Shown: positions 21,435-33,751 of the stretch, one piece after another
Numbering within the stretch: position 1 is the stretch's first letter
Layout: every line of letters begins with the position of its first letter
NCBI GenBank assembly: GCA_964489365.1
Contig: CAZAYR010000002.1
Coordinates: 1-53,070, forward strand
DNA from: an uncultured Salinarchaeum sp.
GTDB lineage: Archaea > Halobacteriota > Halobacteria > Halobacteriales > SKNY01
Reading direction: 5' to 3'
DNA: 53,070 bases
The notes under the pieces: model-generated
The model's database searches: none
What the model saw: the letters and a program-made list of their open reading frames with translations, nothing else
Told to the model about the DNA's origin: nothing
Program-made: the position numbers and the translations under genes

Positions 21435-22403
21435 TTACACCACGATCGCGCCGAACGGGTACGCGGCCGTCTCACGGTGCCAGCAAATCTCCGAGGTCGG
21501 CTCGAGGAGGGACAACGAGCCGTCGTCGTAGTGGGAAAGGACGAGCCCGCTGTCCGTCCCGCACGCCGCGATCGCCCCCGCCGGGATGGGAATCGCCGCC
21601 CCCTCCAGCCCCCGCAGGACCGGCGCCCCCCGATCGATCACGTGAAGTTGGTCGGCCCAGCGAACCAGGTCGACCGGCCGTTCGTACCCCTCGAGGACCT
21701 CGGATGCATCGAATTCGTGATCGGAAGCGTGGATCACGCCATCCTCGGGGGAGGGCACGTAGATCCGATCCGCGGTCACCGTCAGGTCATAGCAGCCCGC
21801 ACCGACCTCCGCCTCGCCGGCGACATCGCCTTCGGCACCGAGCGGAAACGACACGACCCGCTGGTTCGAGCGATCGACCGCAAAGCCGAGATCGGCGTTC
21901 GGCGCCAGTTCGACCCCCTCGACCCTGGCGTCCTCCCCCACGGCGATGTCGTGAACGTGGCGCATTCGCTCGGCATCGACGACGCTGACCACGCCGTCAC
22001 GCCGGCTTCCCACGTACAGGAGGCCGTCGTGGGCAGCGAGCTCGTGGGGTTCGGCCCCGACGCCGATCCGTTCGACCAGCTCCCCCGCCACGGGGTCGAT
22101 CGCCGCGAGGACGTCGCCGGCAGTACAGGTGACGAAAAGCCGCGCCCCGACCGTCGAGAAGTGCGACGGCCCGAGGACTCCGACGTTGATTCGGGAAACG
22201 GAGCCGTCGACGTCGACGACCGCCACCGACCGCTCATCCATCGTCGCGACGAAGACCCGGTCGGCTATTCTCGGCGCGTGGACGGGGTGGCCCCCGACCG
22301 GGATTCGGCCCAGTGGCTCGCCAGTATCGAGCGCGTGCAAGGCCAGCACCCCCGCACCCTGGCAGCACACGGCGACGATCGGGCCGACCGACGGTTCGGA
22401 CAC
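21435..22403 (-). CDS. Cytoplasmic YncE/YVTN-like beta-propeller protein
   Basis: No signal peptide. Repeated blade pattern (V.V.D..s..v...i.vG..P) six to seven times. Immediately downstream of the rhodanese-like gene (1-nt gap). Confidence 0.7.
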   Translation of the reverse strand: MSEPSVGPIVAVCCQGAGVLALHALDTGEPLGRIPVGGHPVHAPRIADRVFVATMDERSVAVVDVDGSVSRINVGVLGPSHFSTVGARLFVTCTAGDVLAAIDPVAGELVERIGVGAEPHELAAHDGLLYVGSRRDGVVSVVDAERMRHVHDIAVGEDARVEGVELAPNADLGFAVDRSNQRVVSFPLGAEGDVAGEAEVGAGCYDLTVTADRIYVPSPEDGVIHASDHEFDASEVLEGYERPVDLVRWADQLHVIDRGAPVLRGLEGAAIPIPAGAIAACGTDSGLVLSHYDDGSLSLLEPTSEICWHRETAAYPFGAIVV

Positions 22404-22404
22404 G

Positions 22405-23433
22405 TCAGTTACAGGTGAAATCGCTGCCGTCGGACGTGCCGACGTCGCCCTCGGTCTCGATCACGGCCGTGGTGCCGGTCTCGACGGGATACCGACCGTC
22501 GTCGCCGCTATTCGCCCATTCCCCGAAGCCCCCCTCGTAAAGACGGACGTCCGTGAACCCGATCGCCCGGAGGGTCACCAACGTCTGGGTCGGGTCGACG
22601 TTCTCGTTGCCGTACACGACGACCGTGCCGTCCTCGACGAGTTCCGCCTCGCCGGCGTACAGTTGCCAGAGGTCGCCCGGAAACGCGAGCCGGCCCCCGT
22701 CGATGTTCCCGAACCAGTGGACGTTCACGGCGCCCGGGAGGTGGCCATGGCGCTCGTGGGAATCCTCGAGGGCGGACGAGCCCGCCGCCGCCACGTACGC
22801 GTCCGGTTCCCGCACGTCGACGAGCCCCGGGCCATCCTCGTTGAGCGTACCGACCCGCTCGGCAAGCCACTCGCGATCGACCCAGAAATCGTTTGTCGGG
22901 TCGGGATCATAGTCGACGGCGTCCGCCGAGCCCCCGCGACCGGTCCCGATACGCCCGGTCCACGCGTCGATGCCGCCGTTGAGGATAGACACGTCCCCGC
23001 CGTGTCCAAGGGCTTGCAGCGCGTAGACCGTGCGGGTGACCCGCGCGCCCACGCTCGACCCATAGACGAGGACGTCGTCGTCGGGCGTGACGCCGAGCTC
23101 GCCGAAAGCCTCGGCGTAGGCAGCCGTGTCGGGGGCGAGGCCGCGATCGGTCTCCCGTCGAGTGGAGATCCCGTCGAGTGCCACACGACGTGCCCCATAG
23201 ATCCGCTCGTTCCGGTAAAACCGGGCTTGCCGGGCGTCGAGTATCACCAGGTCGTCCGCGCGATCCGTGGCCCAATCAACGCCGACGAAGTACTCCACGT
23301 TGCCGTCCGGGCTCGTCGCCCGGGCCACGTCCGCCGGCGTGGTGATCTGTGCACAGCCGGCCATCCCGATGGCGGCGGTCGTTCCCGCGGCCGCGAGCAG
23401 CGAACGACGCGTGCGATGCGGGTCGTCTGTCAT
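22405..23433 (-). CDS. Tat-exported tandem rhodanese-like lipoprotein; both domains lack the catalytic Cys
   Basis: Signal MTDDPHRTRRSLLAAAGTTAAIGMAGC. Domain 1: LVILDAR...VLVYGSSVGARVTRTVYALQALGHGGDVSILNGGIDAW. Domain 2: LVDVRE...GHLPGAVNV...VVVYGNENVDPTQTLVTLRAIGFTDVRLYEGGFGEW. Gly/Asn occupy the active-site Cys position. The only other Cys is penultimate (FTCN). Confidence 0.8.
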   Translation of the reverse strand: MTDDPHRTRRSLLAAAGTTAAIGMAGCAQITTPADVARATSPDGNVEYFVGVDWATDRADDLVILDARQARFYRNERIYGARRVALDGISTRRETDRGLAPDTAAYAEAFGELGVTPDDDVLVYGSSVGARVTRTVYALQALGHGGDVSILNGGIDAWTGRIGTGRGGSADAVDYDPDPTNDFWVDREWLAERVGTLNEDGPGLVDVREPDAYVAAAGSSALEDSHERHGHLPGAVNVHWFGNIDGGRLAFPGDLWQLYAGEAELVEDGTVVVYGNENVDPTQTLVTLRAIGFTDVRLYEGGFGEWANSGDDGRYPVETGTTAVIETEGDVGTSDGSDFTCN

Positions 23434-23514
23434 GTGGGTGTTTGAGTACTTTCCCCTCGGGTGGCGAACGCAAAGGATGCATTGGTTTCCCGGTCTGGAT
23501 CGAGACGTTCCACG

Positions 23515-31807: not shown

Positions 31808-31812
31808 TCGAG

Positions 31813-32925
31813 TTACTCGGCGGCGCAGCGGTTCGGCCCGAGTTCGAGGCTCGCGAGATCCTCCTCGGGGACCTCCGCCCGGCCGATGTTCGCGCGTTTG
31901 ACTTCCTGGAAGTTCGGCGGGTGCTCGGGGACGTCCTCGACGAGCTTGCCCACGAAGGCCGCTAGGTCCAGGCCAAGGTCACCGTTCCGCGCTTCGACCT
32001 CCTGGAGCCGCGCCGTGACGGGTGGTCTGGGCGAACCCGGATCGTGTGCGGGCAGCACGTATGGATCCCCGTCCCGATCACGGAGCCGCTCAAGGCTTTC
32101 GTACAACGTCGCGGCGTTCTCGGCGACATCCGCATCCTCGATCCCGGCGTCCACGCCGAGTTCGACACGGCCCACACTTTCGTGAAAGAGCGTGTCGCCC
32201 GTTAACAGCGCCGCATCATCGATCGCGTAGGAGACGCCCCCGGGACTGTGACCGGGCGTATGGATGACCTCGACGGTGACATCCCCGACCGTGAACCGCT
32301 GCCCGTCGGTCACCGGGCGCGGGTCGATGCCGTCGGCATCGGCAGGATGGAGGTGGTAAGGGACATCGTGACGTTCGGCGAGTCCCTCGCCGCCGGAGAC
32401 GTGATCGGCATGGGCATGGGTGTCATACACGCCGACCAGCTCCGCGTCGAGCGCCTCGATCCGTCGCTCGTACTCCTCGTAATAGTGCGAGGGGTCAACG
32501 ACCGCCGCTTCGCCGTCAGCGGCCAGGATGTAGGAGAGACACCCCTTCCCCGGTCGGGCGACTTGCACGAGCGTCCCCGGGATGTCGAGCCCGAGCGGCG
32601 CTGAGAGGTGGACCCGACTCCACCCGTTCATGCCGTCCTCAAGGGTCGCCGCGTCGTAGCCAAGTTCTCGAAGGGCAGCCGTCGCGTCCTGGGAGATCAC
32701 GCCGGCCGCACAGACCGTGACGATCTCCTCGTCGGCCGGCAGGTCGTCCAATGCCGCCTTGGCGGCTTCCGGGTCATCCTGCAAGGCATCGTAAACGTCG
32801 ACGTTGACGCTCCCCGGGATGTGCCACTCCGCGAACTCTTCCTCGTGTCGGATATCCAGGACGAGCGGTGAGTCGTCCCGGTCGAAGAGGCGCGTGGCCA
32901 GATCGTCCGCAGTGATCGATGGCAT
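31813..32925 (-). CDS. Rhodanese-MBL fusion, persulfide dioxygenase (ETHE1/Blh/CstB-like)
   Basis: N-terminal rhodanese (LVLDIRHEEEFAEWHIPGSVNV, active loop VTVCAAGVISQ). MBL domain with THAHADHVSGG, HTPGHSPGG and GDTLFHESVGRVEL motifs typical of sulfur dioxygenases. Start at ATG 32925. Confidence 0.85.
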   Translation of the reverse strand: MPSITADDLATRLFDRDDSPLVLDIRHEEEFAEWHIPGSVNVDVYDALQDDPEAAKAALDDLPADEEIVTVCAAGVISQDATAALRELGYDAATLEDGMNGWSRVHLSAPLGLDIPGTLVQVARPGKGCLSYILAADGEAAVVDPSHYYEEYERRIEALDAELVGVYDTHAHADHVSGGEGLAERHDVPYHLHPADADGIDPRPVTDGQRFTVGDVTVEVIHTPGHSPGGVSYAIDDAALLTGDTLFHESVGRVELGVDAGIEDADVAENAATLYESLERLRDRDGDPYVLPAHDPGSPRPPVTARLQEVEARNGDLGLDLAAFVGKLVEDVPEHPPNFQEVKRANIGRAEVPEEDLASLELGPNRCAAE

Positions 32926-33013
32926 CGTACGATTGTGTATGGGGAGATGGCCCTTATGAATGATGCCGGTTATATCCGGTACCTCTTTTCCCGTTGCGCC
33001 CAAATGGACCTGC

Positions 33014-33751
33014 ATGAGCCTCTTTCAGGCGTCCTTCCGGATCCGCCACGAGTGTCCGTATCGGGAGCTCTCCGAGGAGTACCCCGATCTGACGATCCGG
33101 GAGTGGTATCTCCATGACTGCCAGGTCCTCGAGGTCTCGACGAACGATGCCCCGCCGGCGGCGATGCTCGATGACATCGAGGAGATGGGAACGGTGCTCC
33201 ACCGGAGCGATGACGAGCGGGGGGTCCACGTGGTGATGCAGTCCTGTCTCTGCGCGCTCGAGGGCTCGATCATCGAGCGCTTCGAGGCGTACAACTGCCT
33301 CTATCAACCGCCGACGGTCCACCGACAGGGGTGGGAGCACTACAGCGTCATCGCCTTCGACGAGGCGGATATCCGGGCGCTCTACGAGGACCTCGACGGG
33401 GATCGTGATATCGAGGTGCTCGCGAAGACCGGCCTCGAGGAAACGCGGATCCCCCACGGGCTCGTGGCCCCGATCGATCAGCTGGTCGAAGGGCTCACGG
33501 ATCGCCAGATTGCCGCGGTCCGGCTCGCGCTCGATCGTGGGTATTACGAGACGCCGCGGAAGGCCTCGATCAGCGAACTCGCCGAGGCCACCGACGTCGC
33601 ACGATCCACCTACGAGGAGCACCTCCGGAAGGCCGAAAACAAACTGATGGGCAACGTCGGCCACTTCCTCAGACTCATGCTCGGCGCGGAAAGCGAGAAT
33701 CCCCTCGGCGTCGACGCGCCTGATGTGGCGCCGGTGCCGATCTCGGACTGA
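33014..33751 (+). CDS. HTH_10 (Bat-type) transcription regulator with a Cys-rich N-terminal domain
   Basis: C-terminal LTDRQIAAVRLALDRGYYETPRKASISELAEATDVARSTYEEHLRKAENKLM. The N-terminal domain carries HECPY, HDCQ, QSCLCA and YNCLY. Start at ATG 33014. Confidence 0.8.
   Translation: MSLFQASFRIRHECPYRELSEEYPDLTIREWYLHDCQVLEVSTNDAPPAAMLDDIEEMGTVLHRSDDERGVHVVMQSCLCALEGSIIERFEAYNCLYQPPTVHRQGWEHYSVIAFDEADIRALYEDLDGDRDIEVLAKTGLEETRIPHGLVAPIDQLVEGLTDRQIAAVRLALDRGYYETPRKASISELAEATDVARSTYEEHLRKAENKLMGNVGHFLRLMLGAESENPLGVDAPDVAPVPISD

Follow-up and report, generated by a model that had tools for sequence, protein, structure and literature searches.

Synthesis of cysteine on a small carrier protein has reportedly been described for Mycobacterium tuberculosis by Burns (2005), Agren (2008) and O'Leary (2008). 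In this pathway, CysM joins an aminoacrylate derived from O-phosphoserine to the thiocarboxylate of the carrier CysO, Mec+ hydrolyses the CysO-cysteine adduct, and the E1 enzyme MoeZR is shared between the molybdenum cofactor (Moco) and the CysO pathways (Voss 2011; PMC3227635). Bacterial arrangements of carrier, cysteine synthase and JAMM genes, together with several operon types with products other than cysteine, have been catalogued by Iyer et al. (2006; PMC1779556), and a brief remark by Makarova and Koonin concerns the occasional linkage of archaeal E1 genes to cysteine synthase. In the literature searched, only such general links between E1 and cysteine synthase genes are noted, and no description was found of the haloarchaeal gene cluster reported here. 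The region that holds it occupies positions 21435-33751 of a stretch of 53,070 nucleotides (nt) from an uncultured Salinarchaeum sp. (the window; contig CAZAYR010000002.1, positions 1 to 53,070, of assembly GCA_964489365.1) and comprises 15 consecutive genes, g1 to g15. Judged from their sequences and gene contexts, these 12.3 kb are two independent sulfur modules that have become neighbors by chance, with an unrelated DUF5827 gene between them. We consider it rather probable that module I (g1-g11) is a thiocarboxylate-dependent cysteine route of the CysO/CysM/Mec+/MoeZ type which is fed by YeeE, TusA and a rhodanese, and that module II (g13-g15) is independent of it.

The ubiquitin-like modifier (SAMP) system of Haloferax volcanii, reportedly the subject of Humbard (2010), Miranda (2011) and Hepowit (2012), is encoded by scattered genes, and its carriers SAMP1-3 end in Gly-Gly. 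Thiosulfate uptake by YeeE is said to have been described by Tanaka (2020). The Haloferax protease HvJAMM1 cuts a linear SAMP1-MoaE fusion exactly after the C-terminal Gly (Cao 2015; PMC4443979), and the sulfur donor for UbaA-activated carriers was left in this organism as 'cysteine desulfurase or rhodanese' (PMC4048286). The TusA-family protein YeeD is an essential partner of YeeE and releases sulfide from thiosulfate in vitro, the acceptors downstream of it having been left for future study (Ikei 2024; PMC11073785).

The window has a G+C content of about 65% and its encoded proteins are acidic, as in Halobacteria. Genes were called by a filter on third-position GC (GC3) combined with translation, and domains were assigned by Pfam and NCBIfam scans. 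A preliminary description of this DNA had proposed a run of 15 mostly sulfur-themed genes, and nearly all of its domain assignments are upheld by these scans. Module I is composed of the following features:

g1, 21435..22403, minus strand: cytoplasmic YVTN/YncE-type beta-propeller of 322 amino acids (aa), last gene of the g3-g2-g1 operon
g2, 22405..23433, minus strand: lipoprotein with twin-arginine translocation (Tat) signal and two Rhodanese domains (Pfam 2e-29)
g3, 23515..24765, minus strand: Tat lipoprotein with YVTN beta-propeller, first gene of the g3-g2-g1 operon
24836..24860, plus strand: bipartite cis element CGGCAG-N12-TCCCTGA in the g3|g4 divergent spacer
g4, 25005..26210, plus strand: YeeE/YedE-family membrane transporter, 401 aa (Sulf_transp PF04143, 8e-54, full length)
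g5, 26280..26663, plus strand: SaoD/DsrE-family protein (NCBIfam NF040913)
g6, 26687..27019, minus strand: single-domain catalytic rhodanese (Rhodanese 9e-20)
g7, 27021..27320, minus strand: TusA-family sulfur carrier with CPYP (PF01206 2e-10)
g8, 27447..28466, plus strand: pyridoxal phosphate (PLP)-dependent beta-replacement enzyme of the CysK/CysM family (PALP 4e-47)
g9, 28476..28739, minus strand: CysO-like ubiquitin-fold carrier ending in PAASGG-Cys (ThiS PF02597, 5e-6)
28781..28805, plus strand: bipartite cis element CGGCAG-N12-CCCGTGA in the g9|g10 divergent spacer
g10, 28880..29731, plus strand: UbaA-type E1 without fused rhodanese domain (ThiF 7e-84)
g11, 29728..30165, minus strand: JAMM/MPN+ metalloprotease of the desampylase type (Prok-JAB 9e-21)

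The core of this set, a ubiquitin-like carrier, an E1, a JAMM protease and a cysteine synthase, is a known kind of system. The same combination of a carrier with Gly-Gly, a PLP enzyme of the CysK/CysM type, JAMM and E1 is found in M. tuberculosis and in the bacterial operon types 4c, 4d and 4e (PMC1779556), and the likeness extends to a carrier family that is closest to solved CysO and to an E1 that is probably shared with Moco synthesis, as is MoeZR. In contrast to the mycobacterial system, however, the present one is archaeal, its E1 has no fused rhodanese domain and a separate rhodanese and TusA are encoded; the PLP enzyme is no specific relative of Rv1336, the CysM of M. tuberculosis, about 80% of the carriers have a tail past Gly-Gly, the genes alternate in direction, and a YeeE importer is linked. 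With the SAMP system of H. volcanii the cluster has in common that g10 and g11 pass the UbaA and desampylase equivalog models and that cleavage after Gly-Gly, as performed by HvJAMM1, is the activity that would be needed here. Unlike in that system, the E1 and JAMM genes are clustered with a fourth family of carriers, CysO-like and usually made as a precursor, and with a cysteine synthase homologue, and a role in conjugation is not implied. Finally, the cluster shares with YeeE/YeeD (TsuA/TsuB) the Sulf_transp fold, the three relay cysteines and a TusA-family protein with CPxP. Here, in contrast, the TusA gene is coupled to a rhodanese gene and does not adjoin YeeE, and YeeE is divergent from an operon, so far without described counterpart, for two Tat-exported proteins with cysteine tails and a cytoplasmic propeller.

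The genes of module I are conserved together. Seven loci were obtained by contig look-ups anchored on CysM-like homologues and cover five named genera (Halorubrum sp. DM2, Halobiforma lacisalsi, Halorarum salinum, a Halolamina plasmid and Natrononativus amylolyticus) and two further lineages, namely a metagenome-assembled genome that is the closest relative with a long contig and an abundant metagenomic haloarchaeon. A metagenome scan anchored on the carrier provided 45 further loci, and tblastn with all 15 proteins led to 42 non-redundant carrier loci, among which co-occurrence was counted in the 21 of at least 9 kb. In these long loci, the E1 gene g10 and the rhodanese gene g6 are each found in 19 cases, while the carrier is encoded beside a cysteine synthase homologue (g8) and a JAMM protease (g11) in 18 cases each, and TusA (g7) is present in 17. 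The importer side is less constant, with g1, g3 and YeeE (g4) in 11 loci each, g2 in 10 and g5 in 8. None of the 21 loci has g12, g13, g14 or g15. Co-conservation across Halobacteria, named in the preliminary description as a condition on which its single island would stand or fall, thus holds for g1-g11 but not for g12-g15. The gene order and zig-zag orientation of the window are the usual arrangement in related loci. Moreover, the gene set is kept across at least six different rearrangements (L084, L089, L093, L097, L100/L119 and L107): in L093 the CysM-like gene and tusA are separated by the YeeE block, the E1/JAMM pair is inverted in Halolamina and L097, and in Natrononativus the carrier-E1-JAMM block is located on the opposite side of the YeeE block. 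Linkage that survives rearrangement in this way is a classical sign of functional coupling. The complete set also resides on plasmid pHAR01 of Halorubrum salinarum, where g3 is named 'hypothetical protein' by the annotation pipeline PGAP. All-against-all clustering of open reading frames (ORFs) from module I loci revealed no further recurrent family, regulator included.

Within the core, the carrier g9 is CysO-like. In the PDB, its family profile matched solved CysO proteins best, with 4N6E_B, which we take to be CysO of Amycolatopsis, at 1e-11 and M. tuberculosis CysO (3DWG_C) at 3e-7, ahead of Haloferax SAMP1 at 1e-4, and g9 reaches only 45 bits on the SAMP1 equivalog model with its cut-off of 60. 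By these scores the carrier family is nearer to characterized CysO than to the MoaD/SAMP carriers. The g8 and g9 genes are arranged tail-to-tail in 18 of the 21 long loci. Among 96 cluster representatives of the carrier family, PAASGG is invariant in 94, and in 76 of the 96 further residues follow Gly-Gly, the remaining 20 ending there. These tails consist of one residue in 32 members (Arg in 28), of two to four in 31 and of up to 13 in most others; their sequence is not conserved, a single Arg being commonest. A carrier with such a tail cannot be adenylated before it is trimmed. In the Pseudomonas thioquinolobactin system of QbsE and QbsD, a neighboring JAMM protease removes the residues after Gly-Gly of the carrier precursor. 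There the context is that of a siderophore, whereas here the neighbor is a cysteine synthase homologue and the tail is short, variable and mostly a single Arg. For g9 itself, the preliminary description as a carrier is to be corrected with respect to an extra Cys after Gly-Gly. By virtue of this one-residue tail, the primary product in the window equals the predicted intermediate, carrier-Gly-Gly-Cys. The idea that this ending is a general mimic of the CysO-cysteine adduct was ruled out, as Cys directly follows Gly-Gly in just 3 of the 96 members; the product is a curiosity of the window and not a rule of the family.

The E1 and JAMM proteins appear to be of the general haloarchaeal type. The g10 protein passes the NCBIfam UbaA equivalog NF047750 (478 bits, cut-off 450), and its two CxxC pairs can be read directly. 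Its best 120 homologues are haloarchaeal and come from many genera, with identities of 73-94% that are nearly all uniform at 73-80%; where NCBI gives a current name, it is 'SAMP-activating enzyme E1'. In Halobacterium jilantaiense, a 77%-identical orthologue is encoded between moaA and moaE. Thus, the simplest reading of these comparisons is that g10 is a general UbaA which serves both Moco synthesis and the carrier, like mycobacterial MoeZR. For g11, the NCBIfam desampylase equivalog NF041370 gives 150 bits at a cut-off of 130, and the JAMM motif E…HSHP…S..D was read directly. That g10 and g11 are paralogues specific to the island is less likely given the uniform E1 identity and the orthologue in the moaA/moaE context. 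The third enzyme, g8, has the invariant elements expected of its family, i.e. the PLP lysine (SVKSR), the substrate loop TSGNTG and the phosphate loop GTGGT. It scores 236 bits on TIGR01136, under the cut-off of 344, and its top matches in the PDB are generic CysK and CysM proteins at about 1e-45, with E. coli CysM at 1e-38. A scan of a genome collection with the CysM-like alignment and the generic pattern IEP[TS]SGNTG returned 80 bacterial CysK loci of 31-39% identity and was uninformative.

On the import side, alignment of g4 to the YeeE protein of Spirochaeta thermophila (StYeeE, 6LEO) demonstrated that C22, C91 and C293 are kept in the contexts RFCF, GGCASG and AGCNIA, in line with the three cysteine motifs proposed before. 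The stop codon of tusA (g7) and the ATG of the rhodanese gene g6 are indeed separated by one base (27020), and the junction measures 0-2 nt in six other genomes. The g6 protein has a Cys in the catalytic column (C65 of GlpE). UbaA has no fused rhodanese domain here, and the conserved, apparently translationally coupled TusA-rhodanese pair that adjoins it is the obvious candidate for forming the carrier thiocarboxylate. A different picture emerged for the exported proteins. In g2, the twin-arginine signal RTRRSLL and the lipobox AGC were read directly and the two rhodanese domains were confirmed, but both domains have Gly in the column of GlpE Cys65, and the second one is without the catalytic Cys in all four orthologues examined (Gly, or Glu in L085). 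As a single-sequence search of the PDB at 1e-15 gave no match for g2, a profile search and local alignment were used instead. Without the catalytic Cys, g2 cannot act as a classical sulfurtransferase, and the extracellular capture step formerly assigned to it as a rhodanese-like lipoprotein is not sustained in that form. However, alignment of the orthologues identified an invariant Cys in the acidic C-terminal tail of g2, within DF[ST]C. Similarly, g3 has a directly readable twin-arginine signal and lipobox Cys (the TAT_signal match is weak, that to the YVTN repeat 1e-9), a profile match to the YVTN surface-layer protein 1L0Q at 5e-30, and invariant cysteines in an internal GPCD and a C-terminal Cx4CxCG. 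Its family is small, with 21 representatives at 1e-30 or better in an exhaustive search among 1.84 billion, and extends beyond Halobacteria, with Tat signal, GPCD and a C-terminal CxxxCCG all retained in its distant members. The third gene of the operon, g1, encodes no signal peptide, has two invariant Cys and weak matches to the NCBIfam models beta_rpt_yvtn and PQQ_ABC_repeats, and its profile hits 1L0Q at 7e-23; the Halorubrum salinarum orthologue is annotated by PGAP as 'YncE family protein'.

The least constant member, g5, occurs in about a third of the loci and is placed after YeeE or after g1. Its earlier designation as DsrE-like is best amended to SaoD/DsrE family: it passes the NCBIfam 'SaoD/DsrE family' model (186 bits, cut-off 152), whereas its Pfam DsrE score of 19.0 bits is under the cut-off of 22.7; it has an invariant CxxC and one further invariant Cys. 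A second SaoD/DsrE-like gene is present just past the JAMM gene in L081 (13167-13523, minus strand) and L145 (2336-2692, plus strand), and in Halorubrum salinarum it is accompanied by a DUF302 protein. At least one distant operon of propeller and YeeE genes exists, at 573-4002 of L142, a metagenomic contig of a non-halophile with 54% GC. It encodes in one direction a Tat-exported propeller with a CxxxCCG tail, a Tat tandem rhodanese with Ser at the catalytic position that ends in ...STCW, a YeeE with the three cysteines and, adjacent to it, a TusA with CPYP; an unrelated protein of 339 aa follows the operon. This arrangement indicates that the association of propeller and pseudo-rhodanese with YeeE and TusA predates the haloarchaeal cluster and extends beyond it.

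Based on these comparisons, the working of module I might be envisaged as follows. External sulfur species, most likely thiosulfate, might be bound or conditioned at the cell surface by g3 and g2, which could, it may be speculated, deliver the substrate to YeeE on their cysteine tails. By homology, YeeE would import it through its three-cysteine relay, and TusA, with its CPYP motif, would take over the sulfur in the manner of bacterial YeeD and hand sulfane sulfur to the coupled rhodanese g6. In parallel, g11 would trim the residue or residues after Gly-Gly from the g9 precursor, as suggested by the ability of HvJAMM1 to cut linear fusions. UbaA (g10) would then adenylate the carrier, and the rhodanese persulfide would turn it into the thiocarboxylate. 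In analogy to M. tuberculosis, g8 would form aminoacrylate from O-phosphoserine or O-acetylserine and add the carrier thiocarboxylate, an S-to-N shift would yield carrier-Gly-Gly-Cys, and g11 would hydrolyse this adduct, thereby freeing cysteine and recycling the carrier. A more far-reaching version of this proposal, which we hold to be doubtful, is that YeeE importers have a so far undescribed front end of a Tat pseudo-rhodanese and a Tat propeller, whose C-terminal cysteines would serve as SoxY-like 'swinging arms' and pass sulfur to the pore, and that in Halobacteria they feed UbaA and JAMM1 through TusA and rhodanese; making cysteine on a CysO-like pro-carrier would then be the chief metabolic task of this machinery, and TusA and rhodanese would be the missing donors for all SAMP thiocarboxylation.

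The module I units may in addition be regulated together. Counting exact k-mers in 17 divergent spacers, no enrichment above shuffled controls was detected (CCGGCAG occurred 6 times, which equals the shuffle maximum of 6). A bipartite motif emerged when 12-20 orthologous spacers were aligned: CGGCAR-N12-YCTSKGA, with a fixed spacer, is found in three different module I divergent spacers across loci, namely g7|g8 (13 loci), the spacer beside g9 (5 loci) and g3|g4 (4 loci), and has few matches elsewhere in 674 kb. The g3|g4 copy in the window has counterparts at the orthologous place in L110, L116, L121 and L145, and that in g9|g10 has orthologous copies beside g9 in L101, L111, L113, L123 and L124. 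The halves occur in an inverted arrangement, TCCGAGAT-N2-CGGCAG, beside g10 in 15 loci. At up to one mismatch the window has two matches, no more than the 1.66 expected by chance; both lie inside module I divergent spacers, and as the three spacers make up about 1% of the window, the probability of this placement by chance is about 1e-4, a figure to be read with the limits that motif statistics are inflated by related loci and that the relaxed pattern was tuned on the window. The g7|g8 spacer of the window itself has no good copy, which also speaks against a shared element. Taken together, the spacer alignments suggest that the module I units are probably co-regulated by a common factor encoded outside the cluster, apart from the operator system of g15 described below.

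The remaining features of the 12.3 kb are:

g12, 30253..30525, plus strand: DUF5827 protein, 90 aa, acidic (PF19145 9e-41, full length)
g13, 30536..31807, minus strand: major facilitator superfamily (MFS) transporter, second gene of the module II operon (MFS_1 2e-52)
g14, 31813..32925, minus strand: Rhodanese (3e-16) fused to Lactamase_B (6e-15), putative persulfide dioxygenase
32964..32981, plus strand: palindrome TGCCGGTTATATCCGGTA in the g14|g15 spacer, candidate operator of g15
g15, 33014..33751, plus strand: HTH_10 regulator (3e-21) with HVO_A0563_N domain (PF24280 4e-40)

The small acidic ORF of the preliminary description corresponds to g12, which is a member of neither conserved module. 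Tblastn against plasmids located g14 on 136 and g15 on 35 plasmid records. On at least 25 haloarchaeal megaplasmids the two form a divergent pair about 90 bp apart, and, as in the window, g14 is followed after 3-5 nt by the MFS gene in Haloterrigena, Halobacterium salinarum and Haloferax mediterranei. Frequently, a gene for a TauE/SafE exporter is located near this cassette. Four-way alignments of the window with L090, L091 and L092 identified six invariant Cys in the HVO_A0563_N sensor domain of g15 and, in g14, the invariant catalytic Cys of the N-terminal rhodanese (GlpE C65 column), HxHxDH and a C-terminal ELGPN[RN]CAAE (31813-31845 in the window), the third conserved tail Cys besides those of g2 and g3. 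In g13, 306 of 430 alignment columns are invariant. The best solved relatives of g14 are 3TP9, 3R2U, the Burkholderia protein BpPRF (5VE3), 4YSB and ETHE1 (4CHL), with glyoxalase II entries interleaved; its score on the NCBIfam Blh model is far under the cut-off. Similar to Staphylococcus aureus CstB with CstR and to Burkholderia PRF, g14 combines a dioxygenase-like metallo-beta-lactamase (MBL) domain with HxHxDH and a catalytic rhodanese, and its gene stands with those of a thiol-rich regulator and an exporter. It differs from these by the N-terminal position of its rhodanese, and its cassette has an archaeal HTH_10 protein with HVO_A0563_N as regulator and an MFS member as exporter; the activity of g14 is putative. 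L090, L091 and L092 share with the window an inverted repeat in the g14|g15 spacer, and TGCCGGTTATATCCGGTA is the sole exact match to TRCCGG-N6-CCGGYA in the window. By gene context, g13-g15 thus represent a self-contained, mobile cassette for persulfide or sulfide handling. In this cassette, the Cys-rich g15 would bind the palindrome in its own divergent promoter and control the rhodanese-persulfide-dioxygenase-like g14 and the exporter g13 for detoxification of persulfide or sulfide. A role of g15 as regulator of the whole island finds no sign in module I. Of the divergent spacers, those of module I share the bipartite element across loci, whereas g14|g15 has its separate palindrome. On plasmid pHS1 of Halobacterium salinarum R1 (L091, 1753-6160), a second small sulfur cluster lies beside the module II cassette; it comprises DsrE/DsrF-like and TusA genes divergent from a gene for an MBL-fold protein, a YeeE/YedE split in two genes and a protein of the phosphate transporter family. 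A TauE/SafE exporter and a thioredoxin are encoded on the opposite side.

Several observations weigh against a dedicated carrier-based cysteine route in module I, and some of them are equally points in favor of other explanations. YeeE and g1-g3 are missing from about half of the loci. Structures of Rv1336 are not among the best 60 solved relatives of g8, which is equidistant from CysK and CysM and has E. coli CysM among its solved relatives. Free thiosulfate can be used by CysM of the E. coli type, and the carrier may therefore not be the sulfur donor of g8. Furthermore, the adjacency of a general E1 and JAMM could reflect a common sulfur supply and not a dedicated pathway. It might accordingly be argued that module I performs thiosulfate assimilation as in E. 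coli, the CysM-like enzyme condensing free thiosulfate, or sulfide released by TusA and rhodanese, with O-acetylserine, while carrier, UbaA and JAMM are close by solely for a common persulfide used in Moco synthesis, tRNA thiolation and sampylation. Such a route would suit the general nature of the E1 with its equally similar orthologue between moaA and moaE, the gene for a glutaredoxin just left of the island, Halobiforma lacisalsi, where the rhodanese-TusA|CysM-like genes occur without the carrier trio nearby, and the sulfide set free from thiosulfate by YeeD in vitro (PMC11073785). We nevertheless regard it as unlikely, because the carrier forms a separate family nearer to CysO than to SAMP1 and under the SAMP1 cut-off, because its tail-to-tail linkage with g8 survives rearrangement, and because a dedicated carrier with cysteine synthase and JAMM is the signature of CysO, CysM and Mec+ (PMC1779556, PMC3227635). 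A product other than cysteine, such as homocysteine or methionine, a thio-cofactor or a secondary metabolite (compare QbsE/QbsD, or CysO in the formation of 2-thiosugars), would be in agreement with g8 scoring under every NCBIfam cysteine synthase cut-off. Carrier precursors with tails that are processed by JAMM proteins are also known from siderophore pathways. Moreover, several operon types of this sort with products other than cysteine were catalogued by Iyer et al. (PMC1779556). Yet genes for tailoring enzymes, ligases or siderophores are not recurrent in the loci, g8 finds its best family matches exclusively among cysteine synthases, and the cluster is widespread and vertically conserved in Halobacteria, as would be expected of primary metabolism; the chances of this explanation are accordingly small.

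A further set of objections concerns the substrate of the importer side. The score of g4 on the NCBIfam TsuA model is 134 bits at a cut-off of 400, a second value is 75 bits at 645, and the score is slightly better, 154 bits at a cut-off of 350, on the selenium-type YedE/FdhT model. TusA (g7) reaches 30 bits on the YeeD (TsuB) equivalog with its cut-off of 147.5, thus is no curated YeeD, and scores alike on the YeeD and YedF models. One homologue of g3, on a Salinigranum marinum plasmid (L144, 6127-10137; 49% identity), stands alone, divergent from an ABC importer with a substrate-binding protein, a permease and a 'phosphate' ATPase, and the propeller family may serve several kinds of anion importer. 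Another g3 homologue has no sulfur context, and both weaken the proposed tie of the propeller to YeeE. Relatives of g5 outside the SAO system neighbor metal ABC importers and the propeller chaperone AztD (bioRxiv 10.1101/2022.07.06.499078). From these data it could be concluded that g1-g5 handle selenium, a metal or a metalloid, with YeeE as YedE/FdhT, TusA as YedF and the propellers and the SaoD-like protein as chaperones. However, all of the model scores cited are far under their cut-offs, the module is tied to the cysteine synthase/CysO-like set in about half of the loci and occurs with TusA in the distant operon of L142, and profile searches of the PDB with g1 and g3 gave no AztD match, an AztD-like metallochaperone having been considered for both and rejected. 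Nor is selenoprotein machinery known in Halobacteria, and we judge this explanation to be very improbable. Hardly credible, finally, is the reading in which, following the preliminary description, all 15 genes form one functional 12-kb island, g15 would be its regulator and the rhodanese-dioxygenase its safety valve. The genes are contiguous and have a common sulfur theme, and there is a resemblance between CCGGCA, a half-site of the g15 operator, and CGGCAR in the module I motif, which we take as a lead only. Against it stand the absence of g12-g15 from all 21 related loci, the spread of g13-g15 as a cassette of their own with its own operator on at least 25 megaplasmids, and the single occurrence of the palindrome in the window. 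The evidence as a whole thus still favors a CysO-type cysteine route in module I next to an independent module II.

With regard to its layout, orientation allows for 10 transcription units in the region, in keeping with the earlier estimate of at least seven, and the earlier counts of five divergent spacers (g3|g4, g7|g8, g9|g10, g11|g12 and g14|g15) and of alternating gene direction are exact. The four convergent junctions measure 0-23 nt each; the stop codons of g10 and g11 overlap (CTAA, 29728-29731), and the gaps are 9 nt for g8/g9 (28467-28475) and 10 nt for g12/g13 (30526-30535), compared with 13-144 nt in other loci. With spacers nearly absent, only very tight termination would keep the 3' ends of the transcripts from overlapping. 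Rfam and tRNA scans revealed no RNA elements within the region.

Genes of chromosomal housekeeping are present in the flanks of the window (dnaK, dnaJ, adenylate kinase, cbf5 and tRNA-Pro). ARAGORN placed a tRNA-Pro(GGG) at 7785-7856, which looks real, and a 'tmRNA' over the cbf5/TruB coding region (7349-7856), which is almost certainly a false call and has no Rfam match; archaea are not known to have a tmRNA. Left of g1 lie redox genes for an Fe/Mn superoxide dismutase (19782-20384, plus strand), a glyoxalase/VOC-family protein (20498-20911, plus strand) and the 79-aa glutaredoxin with CPYC (20923-21162, minus strand). The latter is not kept beside the cluster in other loci; it could matter should S-sulfocysteine or persulfides require reduction. 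Still further left, genes for a multi-PAS histidine kinase of 1063 aa (16309-19500), a receiver-domain protein (15814-16308) and a PQQ-like propeller protein (14598-15779), all on the minus strand, had no tie to the sulfur cluster in the other loci. To the right follow a cupin_2 protein (33779-34171, minus strand), a DUF418/YeiB membrane protein (34424-35656, minus strand) and a plastocyanin/halocyanin-like copper protein (36065-36721, plus strand), and between about 35.7 and 39.1 kb the G+C content drops to 0.60-0.64 and few ORFs clear the GC3 filter. Further out from the cluster, Halorubrum sp. DM2 has genes for peroxiredoxins and a pyridine-nucleotide disulfide oxidoreductase as well as two of the TauE/SafE type. 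A scaffold labelled Haloquadratum walsbyi (L138) keeps rhodanese-TusA, CysM-like, carrier, E1 and JAMM genes, but its YeeE is reduced to a remnant of 71 aa (5365-5580), which suggests recent loss of the importer module.

Compared with the known kind of core system, the haloarchaeal variant is new in several respects: the embedded UbaA and desampylase are of the general type, the carriers form a CysO-like pro-carrier family, and a separate TusA and rhodanese take the place of an E1-rhodanese fusion. Also new are the YeeE importer with Cys-tailed exported partners, which recur in a distant lineage, and the conserved alternating orientation with a common promoter element. The TusA-rhodanese pair beside UbaA represents a concrete candidate for the sulfuration of UbaA-activated carriers (compare PMC4048286), and the cluster proposes acceptors for YeeD-bound sulfur (compare PMC11073785) and adds two candidate exported partners of YeeE. 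A natural pro-carrier would explain why HvJAMM1 cuts linear peptide bonds after Gly-Gly. If the proposed route is correct, Archaea would have a first example of cysteine formation by way of a carrier-protein thiocarboxylate, and a primary metabolic role would fall to the haloarchaeal E1 and JAMM proteins, which have so far been studied for conjugation, Moco synthesis and tRNA thiolation. This role would bear on the idea that ubiquitin systems have grown out of sulfur transfer.

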